Shown here: in pieces, positions 1-1,648 of the stretch | Layout of the letters: each line of letters begins with the position of its first letter | How positions within the stretch are numbered: position 1 is the first letter of the stretch | From: a virus | Lineage: Duplodnaviria; Heunggongvirae; Uroviricota; Caudoviricetes | Direction: 5' to 3' (one strand) | Virus record (IMG/VR): IMGVR_UViG_2541047715_000001 | DNA: 4,961 bases | Translations under genes and position numbers: made by a program | The notes under the pieces: model-generated | Seen by the model: only the letters and a program-made list of their open reading frames with translations | Told to the model about the DNA's origin: nothing | Databases searched by the model: none

Positions 1-1648
1 TTTCAAGCGTTTGTGTATCAATATACGCATCACCAAGAAAAGTTGTTGCGCTACCGTCATATTTATCAAACCGGATACGCAACCTTACCTGCAGTTCTGT
101 TTTAAAACGACATGAGGTTGTCACGTATTTATTATCGCCTGAGACATCAACTGACTTTGTTGCAGCAATTGATGCCATATTAATGGCTGAGGTTTGCCCA
201 ATCAGAGAATCGTTACAGACAAACTTTCCATAGGTAAAACCAAAACTATCCTTCCCGGTTTCGGGAACATCCATATTTGACGATCGCCCCCAACTGGCAG
301 GGTTTTCCGAATTGAGCATGTAGTTTGTTCTTTGCCCCTCAATAAGCAGGCCATCACGTTCAAATCGTGGCTCGTCAATGGCAGCCTCTGTCAGCACACC
401 AGATTTATTAATATAGGTTGCTTTCGATGCGCGTTTAAACTTTACAACCTTATCGCCAGGCATCGTTATTTCATCATCACCAATAACAATCTTTTTATAT
501 GACGGCGAAAAGCCCGTAATCATATCCAGTGAATCGTTAAACGGTATCCACACATCGGGAAGCGGCTGTAAGACATATTTATACGGCTCCGCAGCCTGGC
601 TTACGTACTCTCTGGCTGCATCTTCGCTTGCTTTAGCTGCCGTCTGGCTTGCTGCCGATGCTTTCGCTGAGTTCGCAGCCGCTGTTTCGCTTGTCTTTGC
701 ATTGGTTTCACTGGTTTTTGCTGCTTTTTGACTGTTGGCTGATGCAGTGGCAGAAGCAGCCGCCGCGCTTGCAGAACCAGCTGCAGCACTCTCGCTTTGG
801 GCTGCTGCATCCTGACTGTTTTTCGCCGCAGTTTCGCTGGCTTTGGCATTCGTTTCGCTGGTCTTCGCTGCCGTCTGGCTGGACTTTGCGTTAGTTTCAC
901 TCGTCTTCGCAGCTTTCTGGCTGTTAGCCGCAGCAGTTGCTGATCCAGCTGCTGAAGTCGCAGAACCAGCTGCCGCGCTCTCGCTTTGGGCTGCTGCAAC
1001 CTGGCTGTTTTTTGCCGCAGTTTCACTGGCTTTGGCATTCGTTTCGCTGGTTTTCGCTGCCGTCTGGCTGGACTTTGCGTTGGTTTCGCTCGTCTTTGCG
1101 GCTGTCTCGCTATTTTTCGCGTTGGTTTCTGATTTTTTGGCTGCTGACGCGGAGTTTGCCGATGCAGTCTTTGAGGTCGCTGCCGCCTGTGCACTATTAG
1201 CTGCATTCGTTTCTGAGGTTTTCGCCGCGTTCTTTGATGATGCCGCTGCAGTTTCGGATTTCTTTGCCGCCGCTGCGCTCTGAGAGGCGGCTTCGGCGTT
1301 GCGTGCCACTTCTTCCACCATTGCCTCAAAACGACGCAATGCCTCCGGCATGACATCATCTTCCGTCATGGCACCGAGAAAATCATTCAGCGTACCTGGT
1401 CTGGAGCCTTCATAGACGGTAATGGTCCCGGCATGTGAAGGCGGAAAACCTTCAACCAGCAGGGTGACGCTGTACTGGCCATACTCAACATCCATGCTGT
1501 AACGTCCGGCTTCATCCGGATTTTCAGAAGCCACCGTGTTCACCAGTACCGTGGTGCTGTTACGCTTTGCCTTCAGTTGAATAGTGCAGTTCTGTATTGG
1601 TTTTCCCGCACCATCTTTCAGCACACCTGAGATTTTTACTGCTGCCAT
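1..1648 (-). CDS. stf: Side tail fibre protein Stf, N-terminal 549 codons; 3' end truncated by the window
   Basis: ATG at 1648-1646 preceded by GGAG. I checked every minus-strand codon from 1648 to 2 by hand and found no in-frame stop. The ORF track omits it, presumably because it has no stop inside the window. Translation begins MAAVKISGVLKDGAGKPIQNCTIQLKAKRNSTTVLVNTVASENPDEAGRYSMDVEYGQYSVTLLVEGFPPSHAGTITVYEGSRPGTLNDFLGAMTEDD..., which matches my recollection of the conserved lambda-type Stf N-terminal domain. This is followed by an Ala/Ser/Thr/Lys-rich repeat shaft (SETNAK-type) and then a distinct distal domain (...EPYKYVLQPLPDVWIPFNDSLDMITGF...). Confidence 0.9.
   Translation of the reverse strand, partial: MAAVKISGVLKDGAGKPIQNCTIQLKAKRNSTTVLVNTVASENPDEAGRYSMDVEYGQYSVTLLVEGFPPSHAGTITVYEGSRPGTLNDFLGAMTEDDVMPEALRRFEAMVEEVARNAEAASQSAAAAKKSETAAASSKNAAKTSETNAANSAQAAATSKTASANSASAAKKSETNAKNSETAAKTSETNAKSSQTAAKTSETNAKASETAAKNSQVAAAQSESAAAGSATSAAGSATAAANSQKAAKTSETNAKSSQTAAKTSETNAKASETAAKNSQDAAAQSESAAAGSASAAAASATASANSQKAAKTSETNAKTSETAAANSAKASAASQTAAKASEDAAREYVSQAAEPYKYVLQPLPDVWIPFNDSLDMITGFSPSYKKIVIGDDEITMPGDKVVKFKRASKATYINKSGVLTEAAIDEPRFERDGLLIEGQRTNYMLNSENPASWGRSSNMDVPETGKDSFGFTYGKFVCNDSLIGQTSAINMASIAATKSVDVSGDNKYVTTSCRFKTELQVRLRIRFDKYDGSATTFLGDAYIDTQTLE
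704..1104 (-). repeat. In-frame tandem direct repeat inside stf, period 189 bp (63 codons), about 3 copies
   Basis: Plus 769-915 aligns with 958-1104 at offset 189 with about 13 mismatches in 147 nt (e.g. ctcgctttgg at 791-800 and 980-989; ctttggcattcgtttcgctg at 841-860 and 1030-1049). A more diverged partial copy at 704-736 aligns with 893-925 at the same offset. Encodes repeated ...AAKTSETNAKSSQTAAKTSETNAKASETAAKNSQ.AAAQSESAAAGSA... units with a shorter nested ~14-codon periodicity. Confidence 0.85.

Follow-up and report, generated by a model that had tools for sequence, protein, structure and literature searches.

The side tail fibre gene (stf) on the DNA analysed here, a stretch of 4,961 nucleotides that we refer to as the window, contains a 189-bp tandem repeat that lies in frame within the part coding for the fibre shaft. 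Our analysis makes it very likely that this repeat is an old in-frame duplication, that its copy number has changed by misalignment of the units in a manner that keeps the heptad register, that it represents a fairly stable length polymorphism, and that the long open reading frames in other frames of the same region are by-products of base composition.

The 189-bp repeat and its place in the stf shaft

All genes in the window are encoded on the minus strand and comprise the 3′ part of J, lom and the first 549 codons of stf. The features of this region are given below with their positions in the window.

1..1648, minus strand: stf (side tail fibre) CDS, open frame 2-1648 with the ATG at 1648, running off the left end; 549 of 791 aa
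1253..1642, minus strand: StfN / phage_tail_N domain (Pfam PF08400), aa 3-132, the collar attaching the fibre to the tail (role: Yu et al. 2025, PMC12617516)
611..1279, minus strand: heptad-repeat shaft, aa 124-346, with a base period of 21 nt and 32 consecutive heptads in unbroken register
914..1102, minus strand: unit 1 (U1), codon-aligned 189-bp repeat, aa 183-245, AAKTSETNAKSSQTAAKTSETNAKASETAAKNSQVAAAQSESAAAGSATSAAGSATAAANSQK
725..913, minus strand: unit 2 (U2), codon-aligned 189-bp repeat, aa 246-308; in gene order U1 precedes U2
683..724, minus strand: two-heptad stub AAKTSETNAKTSET, 42 nt, resembling the start of a unit, with a lag-189 identity of 16/21 + 16/21 (~76%)
1665..1686, minus strand: terminator-like hairpin and T-run in the gap between lom and stf, located 17 nt upstream of the start codon of stf
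1713..2312, minus strand: lom (Ail/Lom outer-membrane protein), Pfam PF06316, E 1.7e-127
2380..4926, minus strand: tip attachment protein J, C-terminal 848 aa, with Pfam Phage-tail_3, Ig_J, Ig_J_second, Phage_Tail_Tip and Ig_GpJ_C

The fibre gene is homologous to stf and belongs to a lambda-like prophage. The phage_tail_N domain (PF08400) was found in Stf at an E-value of 3e-67, with aa 3-132 covering profile positions 2-131 of 134 (Pfam), and residues 3-95 match the N-terminal collar domain of lambda Stf (PDB 9e7m, E 7.5e-49; about 90% identical by eye). J and Ail_Lom are located directly upstream of stf on the same strand, and the same J-lom-stf order occurs in phages 2G7b and IdasGreatGrand. 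The segment of the window that was used for searching, 480-1420, is 100% identical in E. coli A0 34/86, where the CDS encodes 791 aa. The distal part of the protein is of a non-collagen type with a GTA_spike_fiber-like domain, and the tail-fibre repeat Phage_fiber_2 (PF03406) gave no match at E<=0.01 in the 549-aa Stf fragment (Pfam).

Tandem Repeats Finder detected a period-189 array at 771-1111 (1.8 copies, 91% matches, 0 indels, score 591), and 189 was also the best self-similarity lag within 600-1300. At this lag the best 150-nt segment had 137/150 matching positions, whereas 200 shuffles permuting blocks of 21 nt reached 96 on average and 107 at most. Since the score lies above that of the 21-nt-block shuffles, the periodicity is real and goes beyond the underlying short repeat. 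The in-frame 189-bp tandem repeat in the Stf shaft that a first-pass annotation had read from the sequence is thus borne out: its period corresponds to 63 codons in frame with the minus-strand stf, and the array (aa 183-308) lies inside the shaft.

The number of copies is lower than the three claimed in that annotation. Beyond U2 there is only the 42-nt stub, and the 189 nt flanking U1-U2 on either side show ~47-50% identity, no more than the 21-nt heptad repeat gives as background; the array therefore consists of two full units and the stub, i.e. ~2.2 copies. The stub at 683-724 is probably what had been taken for the third copy. Another candidate for a third copy at 888-1076 (60%) was rejected as a self-match shifted by 21 nt and not a separate unit. 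Likewise, the description of the units as near-identical at ~91% is accurate for the best 1.8 copies but not for the whole units, which differ at 27/189 nt (85.7% identity) and share a longest exact run of 29 nt. Five amino acid differences separate U1 from U2, and 22/27 mismatches are found at third codon positions.

The heptads of the shaft follow the pattern S-x-x-x-A-x-x, with Ser at position 1 in 32/32 heptads, Ala at position 5 in 29/32 and Ala at position 4 in 24/32. The 189-bp unit comprises exactly nine of these heptads and is a higher-order repeat built on sub-periods of 21 and 42 nt, which were also found by Tandem Repeats Finder and in the repeat listing. As nine complete heptads make up the unit, neither the frame nor the heptad register is disturbed when a unit is gained or lost, and the earlier argument that a period divisible by three allows the fibre to change its length without breaking the frame applies to this 63-codon unit. 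Each unit would change the rod by ~63 x 0.15 nm, that is by ~9 nm, without disturbance of the register.

An AlphaFold2 single-sequence model of aa 96-370 (275 residues, mean pLDDT 80.3) consists of helices at aa 99-229 and 237-356, interrupted once, at those heptads of U1 that contain Gly. Together with the known homologues, this monomer model suggests that the shaft forms an alpha-helical, trimeric coiled coil, and by analogy to Ur-lambda and EPclA the protein presumably forms a trimeric fibre on the virion. The modelled chain folds back on itself as a hairpin (pTM 0.31), which is expected for a monomer. A PDB search with the shaft gave weak matches only: three phage depolymerase entries contain a heptad stretch resembling it (E ~1e-3), and low-complexity matches to the RNA polymerase II CTD were also obtained.

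Unit number among related prophages

Copy classes were assigned by how far the conserved EPYKYVLQPLPDVW motif lies from the point where the N-terminal domain ends (MVEEVARNA), a distance of 244 aa in the window. Among the best 120 protein clusters this distance was 244 aa in 116 and 307 aa in four (P0001, P0002, P0003 and P0039), and the latter three-unit proteins are 854 or 864 aa long. The 80 IMG/VR loci included 44 with 244 aa and 13 with 139 aa, while the remainder carried other distal domains; two units were accordingly present in 44/57 IMG/VR loci having the same distal anchor. Three of the IMG/VR loci (L044, L058 and L068) lack one heptad (-7 aa) from U2. A single unit, with a distance of 181 aa, was found in the complete genome of phage IdasGreatGrand (L001) and in the circular whole-chromosome record of E. 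coli CB209, whose Stf is 728 aa long (L087). We furthermore identified a second two-unit class, in which a U2-like unit is followed by U2 and the two are 92-94% identical to each other (L088, L089), as well as a shorter class without the distinctive part of the 189-bp block. Measured from the N-terminal anchor to PLPDVW, alleles with the same distal junction have lengths of 147, 189, 252 and 315 aa, all of which are 0 mod 7. The comparison of related prophages that the first-pass annotation had proposed thus revealed one, two and three units in addition to the shorter class, so that unit number is not uniform, and Stf lengths of 728, 791 and 854 aa are genuine allelic variants one 63-aa unit apart.

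Synthetic sequences of one, two and three units and a natural three-unit sequence were also searched against 5,426 complete E. coli genomes. Classes were read here from the record spans of the listed rows only. The statistic of at least 80% coverage was unusable for this purpose, because pieces are joined and the three-unit query was 100% covered on two-unit loci (span 578); the one-unit query, in turn, aligns to two-unit loci with its register shifted through the 42-nt stub (matches 61-389). Single-piece matches at 34-389 were tried as one-unit alleles and rejected, as two that were fetched (L088 and L089) turned out to be 791-aa proteins with a U2-like unit followed by U2. Only single-piece matches at 1-389, e.g. 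in CB209, were counted as one-unit loci, and a handful of them occurred in complete E. coli genomes among the matches listed. A span of three units was found in 0 of the 55 top-ranked rows for the synthetic and natural three-unit queries in the 5,426 complete genomes. For such queries a true three-unit locus is expected to appear among the top-ranked rows. The three-unit alleles all come from draft or metagenome assemblies, with GCA_016595135.1 as the source of P0001 and GCA_036902485.1 as that of P0003. P0068, the commonest two-unit cluster, has 4,554 members, whereas each of its three relatives with three units is a singleton cluster.

Changes in unit number and their origin

The junctions of the rarer alleles give an indication of how copy number has changed. 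The middle unit of P0001 has the bases of the distal unit at unit positions 3, 6, 15 and 21, followed by those of unit 1 including a private substitution, and its breakpoint lies within 22-89, the longest identical run between the units of P0001. The same hybrid pattern was found in the middle unit of P0039, with a breakpoint in 16-77; here the private substitution (SQVSAAQ) is present in both proximal units, and in the two-unit P0009 and P0026 it is present in unit 1 only. When the middle unit of P0002 is removed, the protein is identical to P0068 over 791 aa (0 differences). In IdasGreatGrand, the 5′ end of the only unit resembles U1 and its 3′ end U2, as would be expected if it were a reciprocal deletion product; in principle, one unit might also be the ancestral state. 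P0003 is different in that its two proximal units are 100% identical and show no hybrid signature, and it may have arisen by microhomology slippage, by later gene conversion or as an assembly artefact.

Hybrid units with breakpoints in shared identical runs point to homology-guided misalignment, which appears to have changed copy number more than once. The expansion and contraction postulated in the first-pass annotation, RecA-dependent or slippage-mediated, is therefore supported in so far as homology-guided change is seen in the junctions. It is less applicable to the window allele itself, whose units are 14% diverged with a longest common run of 29 nt and which is therefore a poor substrate for recombination or slippage. 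We propose that a 189-bp block (63 codons, nine heptads) was duplicated long ago, in tandem and in frame, inside the heptad shaft of Stf, and that U1 and U2 have since misaligned within their best-conserved 5′ part, leading to repeated changes in copy number during evolution. Unequal homologous exchange (by RecA or a phage recombinase), slipped replication and annealing are candidate pathways. On this view the products are alleles of three units, the middle one a hybrid, and alleles whose only unit is a hybrid.

Instead of intragenic events, mosaic exchange between stf alleles of lambdoid phages, either co-resident or infecting, might be the main source of the length classes. Genomes contain several stf loci, strains MSB1_4I and SBF22 have different shaft alleles at different loci, the mid-unit motifs NSQV/SSQD and AAAQ/AAAE are shuffled between units across alleles, and different distal domains are joined to the same shaft, all of which would fit such exchange. 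However, P0002 corresponds to P0068 plus one unit with nothing else changed in 791 aa, and the extra units of P0001 and P0039 match their own neighbouring units, which favours an intra-allelic or sister-chromatid origin in these cases. We consider mosaic exchange as the main source rather unlikely, although the mosaic and intragenic routes are not mutually exclusive. It is scarcely credible, on the other hand, that the differences in copy number are assembly artefacts and every true allele has two units. This reading could draw on the origin of all four three-unit proteins from draft or metagenome contigs, on the two 100%-identical units of P0003 and on the lack of three-unit alleles in the top-ranked rows for complete genomes, but one-unit alleles are present in the circular CB209 chromosome record and in the complete genome of IdasGreatGrand. 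Assemblers tend to collapse repeats and not to expand them. Recombination, moreover, predicts clean hybrids whose breakpoints fall in the longest identical run, and this is what the middle units of P0001 and P0039 show. The units of two-unit alleles differ at ~27 sites and are readily separable by reads. Collapse of the repeat in short-read assemblies, against which the first-pass annotation had warned, is unlikely for the window allele, where exact identity extends over no more than 29 nt; it is plausible only where the units are near-identical, e.g. in P0003.

Misalignment of the units within an otherwise stable locus also has to be distinguished from a hypervariable contingency locus, i.e. 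a programmed hotspot generating fibre-length heterogeneity at high frequency within a lysogen or phage population. Expansion has apparently occurred more than once and on different allele backgrounds, the length changes preserve frame and heptad register, and stf paralogues, with a median of 2 places per E. coli genome and up to 13, are possible partners for exchange. Nevertheless, we regard such a locus as very improbable, because the units are just 85.7% identical with exact identity over at most 29 nt. Divergence of this degree between tandem repeats strongly suppresses RecA-dependent and slipped-strand events, as is known for diverged tandem repeats and mismatch repair. In addition, the 3′ signatures of U1 and U2 are kept across many alleles and most differences between the units (22/27) are synonymous, which argues that the two-unit arrangement is old. 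Two units are found in 116/120 top clusters and in 44/57 IMG/VR loci, the three-unit relatives are singletons next to the large P0068 cluster, and the top-ranked rows from complete genomes contained no three-unit allele (0 in 55, from 5,426 complete E. coli genomes). The term hotspot in the first-pass annotation was therefore an overstatement; with units diverged by 14%, the locus is a fairly stable length polymorphism and not a hypervariable tract.

Known fibre shafts and alternate reading frames

In the E. coli prophage fibres EPclA/B, phage_tail_N is followed by PCoil, an alpha-helical, trimerising region of Ala/Ser heptads whose lengths differ between alleles by multiples of seven residues (Ghosh et al. 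2012, PMC3368898). The shaft in the window is similar to PCoil, as it directly follows phage_tail_N, is made up of low-complexity heptads rich in Ala and Ser, and varies in length by multiples of seven. Unlike the PCoil of EPclA/B (88-116 aa), it is longer (~245 aa), holds the 63-aa higher-order unit in one to three copies, and is joined to the non-collagen, GTA_spike_fiber-like distal part. According to Yu et al. 2025 (PMC12617516), gpStf of Ur-lambda is trimeric and contains a collar at residues 1-91, a linker and, at 102-393, a proximal coiled coil. The Stf described here shares with it the J-lom-stf position, the collar and the subsequent order of linker and long coiled-coil rod, which in Ur-lambda belongs to a trimeric fibre. 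In contrast, the rod that spans residues 102-393 in lambda Stf is of a different sequence, and while the distal half of lambda Stf is T4 gp37-like and binds OmpC, a different distal region is found here.

Length variation in steps of whole heptads was reported in 2012 for the PfN-PCoil shafts of E. coli prophage fibres and is thus an already known class, and our data do not add a new mechanism. The 63-residue unit, with alleles that carry it once, twice or three times, adds a fresh example to the PfN-PCoil class; searches of the literature for the repeat motif KTSETNA and for tail-fibre tandem-repeat copy number yielded no account of it. If the shaft is a canonical coiled coil, the length classes would correspond to ~21, 27, 36 and 46 nm. 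It is conceivable, though in our view improbable, that these classes are adaptive, with unit number tuning the reach of the tip through O-antigen or capsule layers of different thickness, and that the synonymous divergence between U1 and U2 is maintained and stabilises the two-unit length against recombination. The alleles with one, two and three units on near-identical backgrounds provide a natural series that can be used to test rod length versus adsorption, and the 63-aa unit could serve as a register-preserving module for lengthening or shortening engineered Stf chimeras.

Rods whose length changes in quantal steps through in-frame blocks are also known from proteins unrelated to Stf. Streptococcal M proteins form surface fibrils of coiled-coil type that vary in size and contain in-frame blocks of tandem repeats, adenovirus fibre shafts are repeat-number-dependent, and in both the steps in length arise by intragenic homologous recombination with the terminal functional domains kept. 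Repeats of M proteins are far closer to identity with one another and, under immune selection, vary frequently, whereas the unit number of Stf varies rarely. Adenovirus shaft repeats are beta-structured.

Several long open reading frames overlap the shaft in frames other than that of stf.

601..1359, minus strand: 252-aa ORF, spurious, lying inside the stf CDS in its +1 frame; no Pfam match at E<=1
843..1283, plus strand: spurious 146-aa antisense ORF; its sole Pfam match is at chance level (E 0.83)
649-894 and 937-1200, plus strand: spurious ORFs of the same kind, wholly within stf

Polymorphic sites in 44 two-unit relatives fall on stf codon positions 1/2/3 in the ratio 31/23/90, and this concentration at third positions identifies stf as the selected frame. 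The first-pass annotation had pointed out the two longer frames, 601..1359 and 843..1283, and advised against annotating them as genes; we agree, since neither has a credible family match and the selected frame is that of stf. Its explanation by the repeat is only partly adequate. On the coding strand the T content of the whole heptad shaft is 9.4%, compared to 26% in the rest of stf, so that stop codons are scarce on both strands and long alternate-frame ORFs result. The T-poor composition is that of the Ala/Ser/Thr/Lys/Glu/Asn codons of the shaft. Composition is mainly responsible for the ORFs, and the 189-bp duplication only repeats a stretch that is already poor in stops. For annotation this means that 601-1359 (minus strand), 843-1283 (plus strand) and the two shorter ORFs should not be called genes.

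Shaft alleles beyond the U1-U2 pair

A second two-unit allele class was identified in E. coli 3-72 (L088) and SBF22 (L089), where both units of the 189-bp repeat (Stf aa 183-308) are of the U2 type. The units within these alleles differ by 12-15 mismatches and share a longest run of 52-82 nt, and their sequences point to a separate duplication or gene-conversion history for this class. SBF22 also carries an allele of [U1][U2] length at another locus. Three related IMG/VR loci (L044, L058 and L068) and one match in the sequence search (H52) have a unit 2 that is shorter by exactly one heptad (21 nt), indicating that shaft length also varies by the 21-nt base repeat. 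A different distal domain is joined to the shaft in these four, with the junction ...AADPASVPPLPDIW.

Shaft structure and similar rods

In the AlphaFold2 monomer model the helix is interrupted just once, at Stf aa 230-236 (minus strand, window about 941-961). The break is flanked by the two glycines of unit 1 (AAAGSATSAAGS), of which unit 2 has just one. In the fibre, this position may be a point of local flexibility, or the break may be only a modelling artefact. Similar Ser/Ala/Lys/Glu heptad stretches occur at residues about 130-193 of three phage depolymerase chains (PDB 7vz3, 7vyv, 7lzj; E about 1e-3), and the same kind of rod segment thus also serves upstream of tailspike enzymes.

Distal half and downstream genes in E. 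coli A0 34/86

Window 480-1420 has a 100% identical counterpart in the probiotic E. coli A0 34/86 (L003, NZ_CP120567.1). Whereas lambda Stf has a T4 gp37-like tip, the distal half of this Stf (L003:4797-7169(-)) matches the NCBIfam domain 'GTA_spike_fiber' (phage head spike fibre domain; aa 435-635, E 1e-13), and its receptor is therefore probably not OmpC. Downstream of stf, L003 (1-4800) encodes:

93-aa ORF
346-aa second fibre protein, homologues with Peptidase_S74
97-aa ORF
tail-fibre-assembly gene, truncated
Pin-like recombinase

These genes adjoin ydfK, ynfT and a truncated ydfJ, a neighbourhood that we take to be the Qin prophage region of K-12.

Hairpins around lom and a short repeat

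Two terminator-like GC-rich hairpins followed by a T-run were detected in the window:

2342-2361, minus strand, directly past J
1665-1686, minus strand, directly past lom

The post-lom hairpin lies upstream of stf and ends 17 nt from its start codon, so that stf would be expressed only through antitermination or read-through. Window 1415-1429 (region of the stf N-terminal domain) and 2710-2724 (J) have an exact direct repeat of 15 nt in common, GACGGTAATGGTCCC, probably by chance.
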